From: Wickerhamiella versatilis | Taxonomy: Eukaryota | Assembly: GCA_030867685.1 (NCBI GenBank) | Contig: JAQOWU010000008.1 | Span: forward strand, 1,550,001-1,614,000 | Reading direction: 5' to 3' | DNA length: 64,000 nucleotides | Shown: piece by piece, positions 3,232 to 59,339 of the stretch | How positions within the stretch are numbered: position 1 is the first letter of the stretch | How the letters are laid out: the number at the start of each line of letters is the position of its first letter | Translations under genes and position numbers: made by a program | The notes under the pieces: model-generated | The model's database searches: none | What the model was told of the DNA's origin: nothing | The model's input: only the letters and a program-made list of their open reading frames with translations

Positions 3232-5003
3232 CTAGTAATCACTCCGATTATCCTGCCTTCTGCCCAACGAGTATTTAGACACGATCTTTTTCAGGGCACC
3301 TTCCAGCATTGACCAAGGAAAAACCTTGACATCTTTTTCAATGTTTCGCGGGCGAGGGGGGGCAAAGCTCATAATTAAAGAAAAGAATTGAGCAAGCTCG
3401 GGTTTGTTTTTGGAGATTGTTGTTGGTTTACAAACTTCTAAATTGCGCCTGATCCTGTTTTTCTCCTCCACACTGAATTTTTGATCTATTATCAACTCCA
3501 GAAGAGTGATACAATCTACGCTAGTCACGTAGTGCATACGTTTTTTTCTCTCGAATATACAAGATATAGCTGTCATTTCCGAAGTCCACTCATCGGGCTG
3601 GATGACTCTGAAGCGCAGTCGTACCTCAGGCCCCTCTTGATAACGTGTAAACCAGACAATTCGACGACCTGAGACCTCTTCCTGATGGGTCCAATTCGCA
3701 GCAATGGAATTGAGATTACCATCTATGACCAACTTTGCCACCTGAGACATATGTTGTGATGAGCTTCCTGATCCCACGCCCCAGCTCGATGCTGCCTGAT
3801 AAAGTGCGGACGTTCGTACAAAGCCCATGATCGATGGACTTGGAAGCACTTCTAGGTTAGGAGTATCAATTGAATGGTAAGAGGTCGCCGCTGCAGCTGC
3901 AGCGGCAAAGGCGGCTCTTGAAGTAGGCCCCGGTTGACTTTCAGAAGTCGAGGAAATAGTAACTGCATCAGGTTGGCCGGTTATTGTCCGATATCCTCTG
4001 GGTCTATGGCGATCCCATCGTTCAGCCATACCATAATTTGAGGGGTATGGTGAGACAGGCTGGGATTCGTGACCTGAACGAGTAGGAAGTGGAACATATC
4101 GTGGTCCAGAAGGGGTAGAACGTTGTAGACTTGGATCTGCGGACCGCAGCGCACTCTCTTCTGTTATTCTTGCTACTTGACTCGGGCTTGCAGAGCTTTG
4201 CCTACCACCATGAACGTAATAGTACTGGGGTAGCATCTGGTAGTCCGGATATTCATAAGATGGGGGTGTGGGCGAAGGGAACATTTGCCAGTAAGGCATA
4301 TATTCTCTTTGTGACGGTGGTGACGTATGAGTGACCGCAGGAGTAGCCGCTGAATGCGTGGGCGTCGGAGCGGCGAAAAGTGGCTGTTGTGCGAATCCCT
4401 GGCCCCCCAATTGACGCTCAAGCAGGGGACTGATTCCCCCCATAACTGTAACCGGAGGTTCCTGCGGTGACTTCTGGGTTTCAATAGTGTTTTCATCACC
4501 ACTGTGTATCTCCTCCTCTAACGAACTTTGTGATAAGTCGGAAGTTACGTTCTGAGGTTCCTCAATTTGGGTCTTGGTATGAGATTGAGATGGTTGACGA
4601 CGTGCTATACTTTGCGATACGGACTTTGATTCGCTACGAAAATTATCAATGTCCTCATTAGTTCTCTGTCTTTTTGTTGGCGGCGTACGGGACATTTTTT
4701 CATGTGCTGAAACTTTGATGGCCGGAGTAATTCCGGAAGAACCTGCCAATTCAACCAGGCTGGGGGTGGTGCTTGATCTTGACGTTCGACGTACATGGTA
4801 CTGTTGGCCTACTTCGTAGTTCTCGGTTTGTACTGATGAATCTTTTTTAACAGCATTACTGGACCTGGTTCGTTTTTGTGTTTCTTCTCCATAATCTTTA
4901 CTTGGCAGTGATGGGTCAGTGGGTGTTGGAGAGCTAAACCCCATCAAACCACTAAAAGCAACTCACTGACGACTTCAATAATTGGTTTCGTCTTCTTGAA
5001 CAT
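3232..5003 (-). CDS. Medusa/MedA-like transcriptional regulator; 5' end uncertain (ATG 4944, or a short exon 5003-4967 plus an intron)
   Basis: Low-complexity N-terminus followed by the conserved MedA-type C-terminal domain (ISCIF...YVTSVDCITLLE...FSVEEKNRIRRNLE...FAPPRPRNIEKDVKVFPW). Confidence 0.8.
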
Positions 5004-5924
5004 CCCGGAAGGAGCAGCTAATTGAACTTGCACACTGTCGTCCACTAATGAGCGACGAGAACCTAGATTCGTGGTGGTAAAATCCCACTGCAATAAAGGT
5101 AGTGGTTCGGAAACAGGCGCAAATGCAGTCAGAGAGCTAGTCAAAATGATATTCGTTAGGAAAACGTTATTTAAGACGAAATCCAAAACTTGAAACGGTC
5201 GCGACTATGAAATACGCGAATTCCGATCCGCAGAATAGTTGTTTCTTTCCAAAAAAAGAATTTGTTTACCCCTAGAGCTGCAATATGAGCAATAAGGTAA
5301 ATATAATGGAAACCAGCAGAAAGAAGTCACCGATATATTGAAAGCTGACGCAGAAATGAAGCTAAATATGTTTGGGATGTTCCATCTGAGACAATGAGTC
5401 GGCCGCGTCGCTGCGCTATCACAAAGCCTTCCAATCTGTATGTCAGGTAGGAGTTGGGTAATGATCTCAGACATGCATTCCAAGGGCCATTTAGGATGTA
5501 AGCGAGAAAATAGGTGGAGGGGTGCTATGGGGTGAGCAAAAATATGTATATGTCTTGCAATATTTAATTATATCGAGTATTTTTCAATTTTTAGAACCAA
5601 GTATTATGACTATGGTGGGCAACATGCTTGCATTTACGACGCGTGCAAAAAATGCAATGTTTTGGAAGCACGTAGCAGGATTGTAAAGACATACGAAAAA
5701 AAAGAAAAACCATTGATGCCTTTAATTCTAATTAAGCTCAGTCCTACTCAAAAAAATATACAGTTATGGGGCTTTATGTCATTGACAGTTCCAGTCGACA
5801 GCCACAAACTGAGGAAGGCTCCATGCGTTGCATATATATGCATGCGGTATCCCGATCCCCTGTATGCATCATAGTCTGGATCTCGATGAAAGATCTCGAA
5901 TCTTGTGGAGATATTAGGTAGAGT

Positions 5925-44512: not shown

Positions 44513-45916
44513 TCAGTAGGCGCTCTGAGAAGTTGTTGTCCCCTTGTACAGGTGTGCTAACAGCTCCTGACTGTTGTGAGCTGCCGACGGCTGGGCTGAT
44601 AAAAAAGGTGGTACCACAGCGGCAGGTGCTGGTGGGTTTGTCGAGCTTCCCTCTGTATCATGTGTGGATATAGCACGTTGCTCAACGGTGGGACCATCCA
44701 CGACCGGGGCAGCGAATGGAGCTGGAGCTGGGGCTGGGACTGGAGCTGGAGCTGGGGAAGGTGACAGCATTTCAAGTTCTGTCATAGCAGCTTTGCAAAT
44801 ATCCAATCTTTCGTTTTCAGGCACTATCACACTTACCAGGGAGGGAGCGTCACTTTTAAGATTGAATTGAAACGGCTGGTTTAGCAGAGCAAGGTTTTCC
44901 GACAATAGCTTAAGATCATCAGGTTCATTATCTGCATTATCTGGAAGCCGGTGGACCATCACAGCTGGTGTTTTGCCCCATGCACTCGCAGCAGGAGGCG
45001 TCGAAGGAACCGCTGCAGTTGCACCGCTTGGTTGACCAGTGACTACTGGCGTCGCTACTGGCGCAGGGGCTTGAGATACAACAGAATTGGGCTGCGTATG
45101 CCTGTGTTGCATTGCACTAAGATCGCGACGGGTGTAACTCTCCGTTTCTTCACCAGGCTCGTGGAGGAACATACATTGTGGGTTTTGGCAATGCTGGCCG
45201 CGAAGATATGAGGAGCAATATTTGGTAGTTCCATATGCCGCTCGGAGAATCCTTCCATCAGAGTTTGTAGATCCATCAACTGCTGCGATGCACTTTGCAG
45301 CATCTTCTTTCCTCGCAAATGTTACATACACACCGATCCCCGGCGCCCCATTAGTGTTAGTACGCTTGTTAACAATAATCTTCTGAATTTTGCCGTATTG
45401 TCCGAAGAACTGGTCTCCACGAAGAAGCTGTGGCAGGTCGTCGGTGGGACCCATGGGGTTAAGCCCAATAACGTATACAAGGTTTTTCTGGATGACTCGC
45501 ATACCTGCCAAATGCTTCTTAACCGAAGGATCCTTCATATCCTGGACAATGGAATGACTTCGAGGCTGGCCATGTGTGTCGTCCTTACGATCGCGCTCCT
45601 TCAACTGCTCCTTAAGCTGCTCCCTTTCACGCTGTTTTCGCTCCCGTTCCTTCCGCGCTTGACGAGCTTGCTCATTCTTTATTTCTTCAGCAGTCACTGG
45701 CTTATACTCCACACTTTCATCGTCATACATTCGCCGACACGCTGGGCATCGTCCGTTCAGCTCCGGATTTTGACGGATGTTATTGTAGCAGAACTGACAT
45801 ATTTGATAACCGCATGGGCATGGCTTGAAATTCCGGTCACTCAAATCTAGCTCTTCGATGCAAAGCGGACACAAATCCTCCTCGTCATCAGAAATAAATG
45901 AATCCTGGATTGCCAT
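44513..45916 (-). CDS. NOT4: CCR4-NOT E3 ligase Not4/Mot2
   Basis: C4C4 RING (CPLC...PCPCGYQICQFC...CPACRR), RRM (RVIQKNLVYVIGL), CCCH finger (GTTKYCSSYLRG). Confidence 0.96.
   Translation of the reverse strand: MAIQDSFISDDEEDLCPLCIEELDLSDRNFKPCPCGYQICQFCYNNIRQNPELNGRCPACRRMYDDESVEYKPVTAEEIKNEQARQARKERERKQREREQLKEQLKERDRKDDTHGQPRSHSIVQDMKDPSVKKHLAGMRVIQKNLVYVIGLNPMGPTDDLPQLLRGDQFFGQYGKIQKIIVNKRTNTNGAPGIGVYVTFARKEDAAKCIAAVDGSTNSDGRILRAAYGTTKYCSSYLRGQHCQNPQCMFLHEPGEETESYTRRDLSAMQHRHTQPNSVVSQAPAPVATPVVTGQPSGATAAVPSTPPAASAWGKTPAVMVHRLPDNADNEPDDLKLLSENLALLNQPFQFNLKSDAPSLVSVIVPENERLDICKAAMTELEMLSPSPAPAPVPAPAPAPFAAPVVDGPTVEQRAISTHDTEGSSTNPPAPAAVVPPFLSAQPSAAHNSQELLAHLYKGTTTSQSAY
44717..44757. repeat. 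6-nt tandem repeat encoding a (PA)n tract in Not4
   Basis: tggagc/tggggc/tgggac units, about 7 copies. Confidence 0.8.
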
Positions 45917-46145
45917 CTATGTTGGTATGAGGAGGTATTAATAATACAGAGAGCACCTGTAACACCAAATTTAGTTTTTACCATAAAAAAGGGGAGGTTC
46001 GGTATAGTTCATAATCGGCTTACGATTTTGTATCTTAAACTAGACAAACCACAGTATCGCTGGCACAATTCATGGCCGCTGTCACTTTATCTACTCTTGC
46101 CTACAATAATTAGATGTATTGATATTAGTCAGCTAGTAACGACCA

Positions 46146-46988
46146 ATGGCCATGTTCGCAATGCGATCAAGACAAGTGGCCGGCCGCTTTCTGCATACAA
46201 GCCGAGTATTGGGCAACAAATGGAAAACTCCAGTACAAAGTGCACCTGAAGGTTTACCGAACCTCCATGAGCTCCCTCGTGAGAAGGCAGAGTATGTTCG
46301 GATTCCGCAGGTCAATCCGGCCGACCAGTATAAATCGGTTGCTGAGGATTTGCACAAGTTTGGTCGTTACATTATGGCTGTTCTACCTAAGTACATCCAG
46401 CAGTTTACAGTATGGAAGGATGAACTCACAGTTTGTGTTGCTCCGACTGCTTTAGTTCCTGTGATGCGCTTCCTTCGTGACCACAGCGCGGCCCAGTATA
46501 AGGCTGTTATGGATATTACTGCTGTTGATTACCCATCACGTCACAACAGATTTGAAGTTGTTTATAATATGCTTTCCGTGCGCTATAATTCGCGTATTCG
46601 GGTCAAGACCTATGCTTCAGAGACAAGTGCTGTGCCCTCTATCTGCCATCTGTTTGAATCGGCAAACTGGTACGAGCGGGAAACATATGATATGTTTGGC
46701 GTCTTTTTCGAGGGCCACCCTGACTTGCGTCGGATTCTTACTGATTACGGCTTTGAGGGTCATCCTTTGCGTAAGGATTTCCCTCTCTCGGGATACACAG
46801 AGCTTCGATATGATGAAGAGAAGAAGCGTATTGTATATGAACCTGTTGAGCTAACACAAGCCTTCCGCAACTTTGGTGGTGGGTCAACAGTCTGGGAGCC
46901 TGTTGGTCCTGGCCGTGATGAGCGTCCAGATTCCTTCAAGTTGCCTGATCCGCAGCCGGAAGAGGAGAACAAGGATGAGAAAAAGTAA
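46146..46988 (+). CDS. Complex I 30-kDa subunit (NDUFS3/NUGM)
   Basis: [38 protein letters not shown]. Confidence 0.97.
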
Positions 46989-50455: not shown

Positions 50456-50847
50456 AAAGTAACTTAAGCATGTAATGCCGTGAAATTTCTACTAAAACAA
50501 GGATAGTTCTGCGTAATATGCGTGTTGTGTGTGCCGTTGAAAGCACTTCGAACGTATACGGTCCAATGAATGAATGAATATCCAACTGACCGAAGCACTA
50601 GTAGAATGCTGGCACCACATGTTTACTTGGTGAAGGGCAATCGAAGATAGCTATGCTATGCGTGGCCAAGCCATGTTTCTGCAAATAAAGGATACATACA
50701 TAATTCAAAATAAATAATTATAAAAAAACAGCAACAAAACCGGTCGAGTCTCTCCGGGCTCTATGCGTTTGGTGTGCTCCTCAGAGCCGCCGTTGTCCAT
50801 CTCCAAAGTGGTCCGCTGGTCAAACCTAACCGCGGACGCAGCGCACA

Positions 50848-51828
50848 ATGGACATATCGAAGGGGGAAATACGAAAAGAATACCTTACTGAAATTGCCAT
50901 AGGTTCTGGGGGCTGGGTGGGCCGTGCGCAAACATCCCGGGATCGCTCAACGGATGAATTGGTCGCGGTGTGCTCTGTACGCAGACCCCATGAACGCCAT
51001 GCCTTAAGGTTGTTTCGTGCTTTGGGGCCTCAGCCTCCGTCAATTATCGGCCTTCGGGCAATATTTGAGGACAATATGCACAACAATATTCATTTCGTGT
51101 TTGAGTGGATGAACCAGAACCTTGCACAGCTGATCAGCTCCAAGAACGGCATACCGCTAGATCTTGCAGTCATCATTAAGATCGGCAAGGAGATTCTTAC
51201 GGGGCTCGCCTACATCCATTCCTCAGGGTTTGCCCATAGAAACGTCCGTCCCACCAATATTCTTGTTACGGAAACGGTCAGGGGAATGGTGGTGAAATTG
51301 GCTGATTTCTCGCAGGCCTGGCCCACTCGGTTACAGGTCAAAACAGACAAGACAAATATACCACAATATCGCGCCCCTGAACAGCTCCTCTGCACAAGCA
51401 GCTCCTCAAACCACATTGACATTTGGGCCTTCGGGGTCGTCATGGCAGAGCTATGCAACCTGATGCCACTGTTCCCTGGGACGACCCCTGAGGATATTTT
51501 ACTCCGCCAAACACTCCTTCTCAAGATCCCACTGCGCGAAATGACCGGTAGTACACGTAACCTACCAACAACGCGGGCGAGACATGTTTCACGGAGTAGG
51601 CGCCATGGCATACGTGCCGAGGAACTTCTACGCTTTGATATACACAGCTTTCTGGGACAAACTATCGCCGCATGCCTGAATTCAGACCCATTGAGGCGCC
51701 CTACAGCTCAGCAGGTCCATCTTTTAATATCAAAATCGCCTGAATCGCCTCGTCATGATAATGGCCGTCACCAGTCGTCAATCATACATGACCGGGTCCT
51801 GAGATTAACCCGACGATTATACCAGTAG
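50848..51828 (+). CDS. Ime2/MAK-like CMGC kinase with degenerate catalytic motifs (probable pseudokinase)
   Basis: FVFEWMNQNL, YRAPE and DIWAFGVVMAELCNLMPLFPG are Ime2-like, but the catalytic motifs read VAVC, HRN and DFS. Confidence 0.75.
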   Translation: MDISKGEIRKEYLTEIAIGSGGWVGRAQTSRDRSTDELVAVCSVRRPHERHALRLFRALGPQPPSIIGLRAIFEDNMHNNIHFVFEWMNQNLAQLISSKNGIPLDLAVIIKIGKEILTGLAYIHSSGFAHRNVRPTNILVTETVRGMVVKLADFSQAWPTRLQVKTDKTNIPQYRAPEQLLCTSSSSNHIDIWAFGVVMAELCNLMPLFPGTTPEDILLRQTLLLKIPLREMTGSTRNLPTTRARHVSRSRRHGIRAEELLRFDIHSFLGQTIAACLNSDPLRRPTAQQVHLLISKSPESPRHDNGRHQSSIIHDRVLRLTRRLYQ

Positions 51829-54498: not shown

Positions 54499-54969
54499 GC
54501 TCTATGAATCTAAAGGTGGTTTGCCCACTGGCCACTCTTGGATTGAAGTGGACTACGAAGAGCGCAGATCATCATCTCACGGGCTTTGGGGTCCTGCTTT
54601 GATGTTCTCTAGGCTTGTGCTCAGCTCGGATCCGAGACCCAGCGATCAAATAGAACGGCAGTTATTGAGAAGAAGGAGCTTTATTCTGCTTAGACTATGT
54701 AACTAACATCGACCTAATCTGTTATATGGAATACGAAATAACTATCACTGGACAATAGAACTACTATTGCAGTCACTTCATTGTCTCAGCAGCGGTAAGG
54801 ACAAATCTTCCCGACTGCTCTAAAAATTAAAGTCGATCTGTCCAGTGTTTCTCTTTATTGATTGTTTCAGAAACATACCGTCTTCGATCCGCTGACACAT
54901 TGGAATGATTAGGGTGACTGACGTAAACACACGCGAAGTCATCACGAACGCCCCCACCACCTCCTAGCG

Positions 54970-56007
54970 ATGGAAATTGACCCTGATGTGCAGATGGAGG
55001 ATGCTGTTGATGGTGCTGGAGCACTAGACTTGCAGGATGCGCCCTATGGTGGTGAAGGGCTTGCAAGTCTAAGCTCACCAGTGCCAGCAGCAAGCCTTGG
55101 GGAGCTTGACGGATGGCTTGAAACGTTGAAGAAATGCGAACCTCTGTCAGAGCGAGAGGTCCATCAGCTATGTCAGATGGCGAAGGATATTTTGCAGTTC
55201 GAACACAATGTGCAGCCGGTTTCTGCACCTGTCACAGTCTGTGGTGATGTACATGGCCAGTTCCACGATCTCATGGAACTGTTTAGGGTCGGTGGTCCCT
55301 GTCCGGATACTAATTATCTGTTTATGGGTGACTATGTGGACCGTGGTTACTACTCTGTTGAGTCTGTCAGTTACCTTGTTGCCCTCAAAGTTCGTTATCC
55401 CAAGCGCATCACTATCCTTCGTGGGAACCACGAGTCACGACAAATAACGCAAGTTTATGGTTTTTACGATGAGTGCCTTAGAAAATATGGAAGTGCTAAT
55501 GTGTGGAAGCTGTTTACTGACCTTTTCGATTACTTTCCCATTACCGCGCTCGTGGAAAATAAGATCTTCTGTCTGCATGGCGGGCTGTCGCCCACAGTTG
55601 AGAATATTGACACTATAAAAGGTTTGAACAGGTTCCAGGAAGTACCTCATGATGGTGCCATGTCTGATTTATTGTGGTCGGATCCGGATGAGCGACCCAA
55701 TTGGGGAGTGAGTCCACGTGGTGCTGGGTACACATTTGGGCCCGACATTTCTGAGCAGTTCAACCACAAAAATGATCTCTCACTCATCTCACGTGCTCAC
55801 CAGCTGGTCATGGAGGGTTTTGCGTGGTCTCATGAGCAACAGGTCGTCACAATTTTTTCTGCACCAAACTATTGTTACCGCTGTGGTAACCAAGCGGCCA
55901 TTATGGAGCTGGATGAGGATCTTTATAACACGTTTTTACAGTTCGATCCATCCCCACGAGCTAATGAGCCCAGCGTCAGCAGAAAGACGCCTGATTACTT
56001 CCTTTGA
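54970..56007 (+). CDS. PPH21: PP2A catalytic subunit
   Basis: [30 protein letters not shown]-terminus TPDYFL; acidic N-terminal extension. Confidence 0.93.
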
Positions 56008-56312
56008 ATGTTGTTAGTGCATCCTAATCTCTTAGAGGTTGAGTTTTTGTCTTTATTAGTGAAAAGATGATGCTGAGCCATCTGAATTATAACAATTTCT
56101 TTTGTCGCAGTTAATATCATAGCGCAAGTACAAGTGTATGGAAATCGCAAACTATTGGTAGTCTAGTCATTGGAAAGCTGAGTACGTTTCGATAGGCTTT
56201 ACTATTCCAGAAGTTAGTACGGCTTCATTGATTTTTTATACATGTGGGCATCAACATCAACGAATTTGATGTGTGACTTGTGTCGCACAATTTCAATCAA
56301 AACCAAAGTTTA

Positions 56313-57335
56313 ATGGAAGAAAGACTGGAGACATTTTTTGGCGCATTGATAGCTGGGGCTAATCCCAGGCTCCGGGCGCGTACCCGCAAGCGTGACTGGC
56401 CGCACTCGCGGTCCAGTGCGCGCAGTGTGGCTCTGGCCGGGTTTGTTTATCGACCAACTAACAAGGAACCTGATCGTACAGAATGTGTGGATTGTGGTTC
56501 CTTCTGTAGCGACTGGAAAGCGGCCAAGCTTCGCAATCCTGCAGAACGTCATCTTGAGCTTGATCCAAATTGCGCGCGGTACCCGAAGACCCAAGGAGAA
56601 ATCTCGAGAAAAAGCAGTATTGACGCGCCTCAGTCGGTGGAGGATGAAAGAAAAGCGACAAAAACTAAGGAATCTCCGCCTGCTAGGGGTAGGACTGTCT
56701 TACCTCCGGACATCATAGACCATGTTAAGGATCAGTTGGCAAAGAGTACTAACAAGCCAGCACTTGCTCTTAGGTTCCTGGAACAAATGTTAAGTGGCAT
56801 TGGAAACCAAGCAAATGTATTATTGAGCATTATTTCAAGTGATTCCCAAAAGGATCATGCTTCAGATGTGAATGCGGGTATCCATCCTGAAGATGAGAAC
56901 GATAATTCGACATCTAGGCAACGGGATGGCTCAGGGCCTATGATGACGGGTAGTCCATCACCTAGAAATAGCAAGAGAAAATTGTCGATGCATCTTAGCC
57001 TTGGACGTCCAAAAAGCCAAAGTGGAGGCCCTGCTGAGGTCGGACTAAGTCCTTCACCCGGTGCTGCTGCTTGCAAATTGAATGCAAGCCCCTTGTTGCG
57101 TCCGCCAACGCATGTTTCACATGCCCGTCCATCTTCAATGCTTTTTCGGATCTCGAGCTCTCCTTCAAAGCTTCCGAGTCCCATATGTGCACCTATGAAA
57201 CTCAGTCCACCGGGCCTCAGCCCACCGCCAAAGCTCTGTTCGCCGCTATGTAGCCCCTTGGCCTCGCCATTAAAGTTGACTTGTGAAGACAATCGACGTG
57301 ATAGTTTTTTCCACTCAAATGGGTCCGAATCTTAG
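56313..57335 (+). CDS. BIR1: Bir1/survivin, N-terminal part (single BIR domain plus SP-rich region)
   Basis: RLETF...WPH...AGF...CVDC...W...H...C zinc-binding BIR pattern. ATG at 56313. Confidence 0.8.
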   Translation: MEERLETFFGALIAGANPRLRARTRKRDWPHSRSSARSVALAGFVYRPTNKEPDRTECVDCGSFCSDWKAAKLRNPAERHLELDPNCARYPKTQGEISRKSSIDAPQSVEDERKATKTKESPPARGRTVLPPDIIDHVKDQLAKSTNKPALALRFLEQMLSGIGNQANVLLSIISSDSQKDHASDVNAGIHPEDENDNSTSRQRDGSGPMMTGSPSPRNSKRKLSMHLSLGRPKSQSGGPAEVGLSPSPGAAACKLNASPLLRPPTHVSHARPSSMLFRISSSPSKLPSPICAPMKLSPPGLSPPPKLCSPLCSPLASPLKLTCEDNRRDSFFHSNGSES

Positions 57336-57555
57336 CTATTTTCATTTCCAAAGTGCAATGAGGAACCTCGGTATAGCCATGGATGATCAATTTGATGCTC
57401 TTTTGAGTGCGATATCACCCTATTTGAACATATTCGAATTCTATAATACGGTGGAGGACTACTTGATCAACCATATCGATAGTGTAACGGAATTGGGCAT
57501 TTGTGCAATCGAGACCGAGGCACGACAAGTACTGGAGACGGTTAAGGCCGTCTAG
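57319..57555 (+). CDS. Probable Bir1 C-terminal CPC-binding helix, in the +1 frame
   Basis: TVEDYL...IETEARQVLETVKAV resembles the conserved fungal Bir1 C-terminus; overlaps the end of the upstream ORF. Confidence 0.55.
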   Translation: MGPNLSYFHFQSAMRNLGIAMDDQFDALLSAISPYLNIFEFYNTVEDYLINHIDSVTELGICAIETEARQVLETVKAV

Positions 57556-57702
57556 GGTGTACTGGGAAACATATTGATCCAAGGTCCCTTAGCGTGATTC
57601 CAGTTGTCATATTAATGATAATTACATAGCATTAAACCTATTTGTATGCCAGAAATGATGTTTCTTGTAACTGTCCTTTTACGTGAACCCTTGCCTTGAC
57701 CC

Positions 57703-58290: not shown

Positions 58291-58304
58291 ATAAATATAC
58301 ATCC

Positions 58305-59102
58305 CTAACGCATTAAGATCTCCTTCAAGCTTTGAGGGTCTGCCGTTGCGCGACGCTTCATAGCAATGTATTTCCTACGTGTCGCTTGTATACCGCGACT
58401 CTCTTCTTTCCGCCTCTCCTCAGCCTCATTCTGAGAAGCGTCACTAGATTCCTGCGGAGTTACTTCCTTTTCTTTTTTCGTTTCTTTTTCCTTCTTATTC
58501 TCTGCCTTCTTCAATTTCTCCTCCTCTTTCTTTGAGCGTTTCTCTTTTTTGTCTTCCTTGGTTTTTAGCCTTTTCTTACGCTCACTGTTCGAATCTTTCG
58601 ATACCTTGGACCTCTTGCGGCTTGACGAAGAATCATCCTTATCCTTCTCCTTAGATTTTGACTTTGATTTCGATTTCGATTTCGACTCTGACTCTGATTT
58701 TTTAGCTTTGTCTGAAATAAACTGCTCAATTGTTCCCTCCAAAACTCCGCCAGGAACGAAATTGAGATGCAAACCGACCTGCCTCCGCTTACGCTCCAAT
58801 AATTGGTTGTCGACCTTCTCTTCCTCTCCATTCAGTCTACCAAGTAGTCTCTGGAAGTCATCCAGCCCAGTCGGCAAATCCTGTCCTCCAGAAAAACCTA
58901 GTCCTTTACCTTCAGGCCTAGTTTTTACTTTGACATGTGTTGTGATGCCCTCCACGGATGAGCCTAGGCCCCTACCAGGCTTCCATCCCTGCCTGAGCAT
59001 ATATTGGTGCCCAAATCGAGAAGTATCATTTGCCCAAGCTGTATTTCTTGGATCGTGGCCTATGCGGGCCTTACGATCATTACTAGCCAGGGAAAGCCCC
59101 AT
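58305..59102 (-). CDS. PXR1: G-patch ribosome biogenesis protein Pxr1/PinX1
   Basis: DPRNTAWANDTSRFG, G-patch GWKPGRGLG, FQRLLGRLN, KKE-rich tail. Confidence 0.92.
   Translation of the reverse strand: MGLSLASNDRKARIGHDPRNTAWANDTSRFGHQYMLRQGWKPGRGLGSSVEGITTHVKVKTRPEGKGLGFSGGQDLPTGLDDFQRLLGRLNGEEEKVDNQLLERKRRQVGLHLNFVPGGVLEGTIEQFISDKAKKSESESKSKSKSKSKSKEKDKDDSSSSRKRSKVSKDSNSERKKRLKTKEDKKEKRSKKEEEKLKKAENKKEKETKKEKEVTPQESSDASQNEAEERRKEESRGIQATRRKYIAMKRRATADPQSLKEILMR
58654..58701. repeat. 6-nt tandem repeat encoding an (SE/SK)n tract in Pxr1
   Basis: gatttt/gacttt/gatttc/gactct units, 8 copies. Confidence 0.8.
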
Positions 59103-59339
59103 CAATGACTCGTCGCTAGAGGGAAAAAAATTATATAATACAGTTTATATTGTTCAACTCAGATGAACAGGATAACATTGTGCAACTTTGCAGCTAGTTT
59201 AGTCCAGATTTTAAGATTCTATTACACTGCAACTCTTTTTAATGCTTTATAGTTTAGAGCACAGACACCCAAGTAAATAGCAAGTGGCTTTACAGGTATT
59301 GCAATATTGTGAGACTATCGCTGAAAAACAACAGCCCAA

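Follow-up and report, generated by a model that had tools for sequence, protein, structure and literature searches.

A survivin/Bir1-type gene of Wickerhamiella versatilis that appears split across two reading frames, most probably through one surplus T in a homopolymer of the assembly

Survivin (BIRC5), a component of the animal chromosomal passenger complex, is a protein of about 140 aa with a single BIR domain and a helix at its C-terminal end which follows directly after this domain. According to reviews, the place of survivin in the chromosomal passenger complex of yeast is taken by Bir1, which interacts with the N-terminus of Sli15 (PMC5743930, PMC3967068). The fungal Bir1 proteins, namely Bir1 of S. 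cerevisiae and Bir1 (also Cut17 or Pbh1) of S. pombe, are all built from a BIR region at the N-terminus, an extended linker and a short C-terminal part with helical structure. The C-terminal part of Bir1 is the essential part, by which the protein binds to the complex. A second type of described system with relevance for the locus presented here are the yeast genes and elements in which a +1 frameshift joins two reading frames; known sites are those of Ty1, Ty3, ABP140, EST3 and OAZ1.

The gene described here is located in a stretch of 64,000 nucleotides of the Wickerhamiella versatilis genome (contig JAQOWU010000008.1, positions 1,550,001 to 1,614,000), the whole of which is referred to as the window. 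It shares with survivin the single BIR domain and a helix at the C-terminal end (predicted here, with low confidence), with fungal Bir1 the succession of a BIR domain at the N-terminus, an extended linker and a short C-terminal part predicted to be helical, and with the yeast +1 frameshift genes, in the sequence as written, two overlapping frames that encode one conserved protein. Frame 0 starts with the ATG at 56313 and is open on the + strand for 340 codons up to TCT-TAG at 57330-57335. The second open reading frame (ORF), also on the + strand but shifted by +1, comprises 91 codons between 57280 and its stop codon at 57553-57555, contains ATGs at 57319, 57358 and 57379 and ends with ...TVEDYL...ETEARQVLETVKAV. 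Both frames overlap by 56 bases, and inside this overlap lies a run of six Ts (T6, 57305-57310) within AGT-TTT-TTC. This arrangement of two ORFs, including the stop, the ATGs and the position of the T6 run, had been reported in the initial annotation of the window and is present as described there. It is more than chance, since orthologues align to both ORFs as one protein. The features of the gene are compiled in Table 1.

Table 1 Features of the survivin/Bir1-like gene of W. versatilis (positions of the window)
Feature	Position	Strand	Remarks
Survivin/Bir1-like gene	56313..57555	+	A single continuous ORF of 413 codons if the surplus T is left out
BIR domain, residues 21-88	56373..56576	+	Pfam PF00653; zinc ligands C58, C61, H80, C87
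Linker helical block, residues ~133-188	56709..56876	+	Conservation with P0002 and predicted helices
T6 homopolymer	57305..57310	+	T5 in all other data; one surplus T, very probably, leading to the apparent frame break
TAG ending frame 0	57333..57335	+	Stop only through the surplus T; very probably not the real stop of the gene
C-terminal 81 residues (333-413)	57310..57552	+	+1 frame of the window; 57553-57555 taken as the true stop

Exactly one BIR domain is found in the first ORF by Pfam (E 8.1e-10), with a score of 39.5 bits vs a gathering score of 22.9 as cut-off, which is also reached by the two closest protein records (P0001 and P0002, see below). For the second ORF there is no Pfam family at E<=1. 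The four zinc ligands (Table 1) are invariant in a six-sequence alignment (A1), are aligned with the corresponding survivin residues and follow the spacing C-x2-C-x18-H-x6-C. The canonical BIR spacer between the second cysteine and the histidine is x16, and in comparison to survivin this spacer is two residues longer here. Survivin/BIRC5 is the best solved relative of the domain (1m4m_A, E 4e-5) and accounts for 15 of the 18 matched sequences of solved structure, with modest E-values from 4e-5 to 5e-3; as judged by this top match and this share, the domain is closer to survivin than to other IAPs. An exhaustive phmmer search with P0001 in 1.84 billion representatives revealed 120 proteins at E<=0.001. 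In 119 of them the best stretch falls within residues 1-151 of the query (the BIR region), the exception being P0160 with residues 27-269. At E<=1e-30 just the protein's own cluster is left, and outside the BIR domain the same exhaustive search found no relatives beyond the protein's own 50 % cluster. The initial assignment as a survivin/Bir1-type protein with one BIR domain holds on the basis of PF00653 and of survivin as the top solved match. The accompanying statement that yeast Bir1 normally possesses two BIR domains is a fair one. Among 14 phmmer matches chosen for comparison, all of them long proteins (568-1302 aa) with an N-terminal BIR, 13 contain two BIR stretches, and in this respect the W. 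versatilis protein with its one BIR and its 413 aa differs from them; however, single-BIR relatives exist as well (P0230, P0150 and P0145).

Searching with the first ORF gave two proteins at E<=0.001 among 4576 candidates, P0001 (413 aa, 99 % identity, 98 % query coverage) and the orthologue of the sister species, P0002 (420 aa, 51 % identity, 98 % query coverage), both of them continuous. At the junction both read ...RR(D/E)SF-STQ... without interruption. This corresponds to frame 0 of the window through AGT-TTT and then to the +1 frame from TCC-ACT-CAA, as one T fewer gives. The 90 % cluster of P0001 consists of five members of 413 aa each, which are on record from 1+11+2+1+1 = 16 contigs. 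The window's own alleles are represented by P0124 (413 aa; 11 contigs, the longest of 2,080,119 bases): over 332 residues from the start it is identical to frame 0, and over the final 82 residues to frame +1, the sum being 414 instead of 413 because one Phe in the T run is read by both frames. The remaining four members are allelic variants with substitutions elsewhere, all without the break. The substitutions among the five forms are confined to the linker, apart from a single change in the C-terminal 82 residues of P0127; among the remaining four forms these 82 residues do not vary. Furthermore, the junction residues S331, F332, S333, T334 and Q335 are invariant in A1, in which the sister species is included. 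In a collection of about 15 billion proteins, neither the truncated product of 340 aa nor a second ORF started at the ATG at 57319 or 57358 is present. A fission of the gene into two polypeptides and a frame break shared with orthologues had both been considered at the outset. All five cluster members and the sister-species orthologue are single continuous proteins, which speaks against either.

Four runs were aligned to positions 56250-57650 (1401 bases), comprising RNA raw reads (X24 and X21) and DNA contigs (X10 and X5). One letter is omitted at 57305 in 30 of the 33 reads of X24, an Illumina polyA RNA run, with 20 start sites. The same omission occurs in X21 in 42 of 52 reads, with 29 start sites; this run is labelled LS454, a homopolymer-error-prone platform if the label is true. 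The 3/33 and 10/52 reads that do not show the omission count against T5 unless they simply end within the run. The DNA runs X10 and X5, with a single contig each, also omit one letter at this position. Over the full 1401 bases each of their contigs shows 1 gap and 0 other letters, and they thus carry the same alleles as the window save that T. Since X10 and X5 agree in length (164,018) and in depth, they could be duplicates of a single data set, and the window could even have been derived from them; they are therefore counted as one witness, not two. Their sequencing platform is not on record. Three fixed differences separate the window from both RNA runs, 56585 G>C, 57066 G>A and 57195 A>G. 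The latter two equal A252T and M295V of P0001, and the first one is synonymous by codon reading. The RNA runs are derived from another strain, and T5 is therefore established for the transcripts of that strain, not for the window's strain. A search for runs listed 24, 20 of which contain the stretch or part of it and 19 at least half of its words. None of those listed as containing it is on record as RNA, and the two RNA runs were included on the basis of their species label. The word share was 0.98 in 17 of the 24 runs and 1.00 in none of them, which fits one changed base in 1401 and is to be taken as a hint only. Reads with five Ts had been named in the initial annotation as the observation that would speak against a split gene, and this is what was found in both RNA runs and both DNA contigs.

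Three independent lines of evidence, namely the RNA of a second strain, the contigs together with the protein records, and the sister species, agree with each other, and the organism is therefore assigned T5 and one gene of 413 codons. We are highly confident that the sixth T is a homopolymer error in the consensus of the assembly and that the real gene is continuous and of the ordinary survivin/Bir1 type. The assembly would then have T6 at 57305-57310 where the organism has T5, that is, one surplus T, presumably a consensus or assembly error of the kind which homopolymers attract, and its origin would be in the assembly rather than in a cell. The real gene would be a single uninterrupted ORF of 413 codons with which recoding, splicing or gene fission have nothing to do. 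The headline of the initial annotation, a gene split across two frames, is not supported by reads, contigs and protein records. An assembly error of 1 nt, the third reading offered there, is the one supported by reads, contigs, protein records and the sister species.

Homopolymers also mutate in vivo through replication slippage, and T6 could accordingly exist in the sequenced isolate as a private or heterozygous allele and be a true frameshift by which the protein is cut before its C-terminal helices. The window itself reads T6, and the read evidence used here is confined to the runs X24, X21, X10 and X5. However, T5 is present in the contigs which share the alleles of the window over 1401 bases, and the intact P0124 with these same alleles is found on 11 contigs, whereas the truncated product has no record. 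In addition, the C-terminal 82 residues are near-invariant among the allelic forms and strongly conserved in the sister species, so that this region is under constraint. Both S. cerevisiae and S. pombe depend on Bir1 for viability, which counts further against a truncating allele, and altogether a real T6 allele is improbable. There is just a very small chance that the isolate truly has T6 (private or heterozygous) and that a certain amount of full-length Bir1 is still made because tRNA-Phe slips spontaneously by +1 on U6. If true, this would be a natural leaky frameshift allele of a chromosome-segregation gene.

A programmed +1 ribosomal frameshift, either at UUU-UUU-C or at the stop, would join both frames during translation. 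Having slipped by +1 on U6, the tRNA-Phe could pair again, and the conserved protein would result. However, the codon after the slip site is UUC and not a stop, and the break itself is missing from the transcripts, from the DNA contigs, from the five allelic records (16 contigs) and from the sister species. The proposal is disfavoured because a programmed site would be conserved, and with one T omitted in RNA reads and DNA contigs and no break in the orthologues it is very improbable that such a frameshift takes place. In this the locus differs from the yeast +1 frameshift genes: the break is missing from reads, other assemblies and the sister species, and there is nothing to recode.

A short or non-canonical intron which takes out the stop and restores the frame is extremely improbable. 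Intervals with the right phase do exist in a formal sense, e.g. from GTGAAG at 57283 to the AG at 57376 (94 nt), and 122 formal GT/GC...AG intervals were listed that would shift frame 0 into the +1 frame. None of the canonical donors GTAAGT, GTATGT and GTGAGT is among the donors of the intervals up to 400 nt, in agreement with the initial annotation, which had noted the lack of a canonical donor. Its suggestion to look for a cryptic intron in RNA-seq data led to a negative result: the 492 and 537 aligned RNA reads of the two runs are free of spliced joints, with all 30 bins covered and a depth of ~30-50 at the site. Moreover, residues which are unchanged in the sister species would be lost with such an intron. 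With no canonical donor among these intervals and no joint in the RNA, a spliceosomal intron was rejected.

The frame split is thus not a biological feature, and the gene is otherwise ordinary. Left uncorrected, the assembly leads to the annotation of this gene as truncated or split, and the site would be a false positive in comparative screens for recoding. A comparison of such a site with reads, other assemblies and sister species is a cheap test to distinguish a homopolymer error from recoding. The outcome here is a corrected gene model and a warning against taking breaks of this kind for recoding.

The continuous protein differs from survivin in the region behind the BIR domain, where a Ser/Pro-rich linker of ~250 residues with a conserved helical block lies before the C-terminal helix. 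Apart from this one block the linker is poorly conserved. Residues ~129-171 are conserved between P0124 and P0002, and helices are predicted by AlphaFold2 for residues 133-144 and 148-188. The prediction was made from the six-sequence alignment and has a mean pLDDT of 40.2 and a pTM of 0.30, with the BIR domain itself poorly modelled. Averaged over 10 residues, the pLDDT in the block is 71-82 for residues 131-160 and falls from 54 down to 33 for residues 161-190. The linker block includes the best-predicted part of the model and is without a family match.

At the C-terminus helices are predicted for residues 345-351, 358-370 and 373-412, with a block pLDDT of 54-77 in the same AlphaFold2 model. 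The C-termini of the 14 long relatives share a common conserved pattern. A local hhalign alignment of the C-terminal 80 residues (the protein and three relatives) with these 14 C-termini gave a weak match (score 19.2, P 0.0028, probability 11 %), in which columns 38-80 are aligned in both profiles. None of 200 column shuffles reached 19.2 (mean 9.47, sd 1.97, max 18.0), where it has to be considered that shuffling also destroys helical periodicity, so that the test may partly reflect generic amphipathic helices. A global alignment of the C-termini gave a score of 13.3 and a probability of 1.5 %, so that a score beyond those of the shuffles was reached in the local alignment only. For residues 325-413 no usable match was obtained in the ESM Atlas, and the exhaustive phmmer search with P0001 gave no match for the C-terminus. 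By analogy with survivin and Bir1, this C-terminus would be the part that anchors the protein in the chromosomal passenger complex. Taken as a whole, the gene product is an ordinary single-BIR protein of the survivin/Bir1 type, in which a long linker rich in Ser and Pro precedes a C-terminus predicted to be helical. A compact Bir1 with a single BIR and a divergent C-terminus is mildly useful for the study of variation in the localisation subunit of the passenger complex among budding yeasts, and it is not surprising.

As regards other places of the window where the assembly might be in error, 17 pairs of ORFs on the same strand overlap in different frames, and in 10 of these 17 the overlap contains a run of at least 5. 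No second proven homopolymer break was found in the window, some of the 17 pairs having been checked by Pfam and that of Not4 by homology. The homologue of Not4/Mot2 (RING/U-box and RRM, 467 aa) is encoded on the - strand at 44516-45916, and a T6 run lies where its 3' end is overlapped by an ORF of 151 codons (44657-44205) in a different frame. A frame break was rejected in this most suggestive of the other cases, as the exact protein of 467 aa is on record from 11 contigs and the sister species has a protein of 460 aa with 100 % coverage. The relatives of this Not4 protein that carry names, among them Sugiyamaella, Geotrichum, Nadsonia and Yarrowia, assign the organism to the budding yeasts (Saccharomycotina). 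A further overlap concerns an ORF of 576 codons at 3235-4962 (-) with a DUF7082 domain (E 2.1e-59). Its 5' end is overlapped in another frame by an ORF of 86 codons (4947-5204, -) with no homopolymer in the overlap, which could be due to an intron, an upstream ORF or chance. The start of an ORF with a protein kinase domain (Pkinase, E 1.9e-31) at 50830-51825 (+) is overlapped in another frame by an ORF of 62 codons at a G5 run.

Downstream of the survivin/Bir1-type gene, the + strand ORFs 58317-58535 and 58435-59166 are without a family match and seem to be spurious. From about 58300 to 59170 the pyrimidine-rich + strand is apparently antisense to a gene on the - strand whose product is rich in lysine and glutamate, going by the sequence reading only. 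The upstream neighbour at 54922-56007 (+) encodes the catalytic subunit of a PP2A-type Ser/Thr phosphatase (Metallophos, E 1.2e-42), and its open frame reaches well upstream of the domain. Saccharomyces is without respiratory complex I. The window contains the gene for the 30-kDa subunit of this complex at 46140-46985 (+) (PF00329, E 1.6e-49), and complex I is therefore retained in this yeast.
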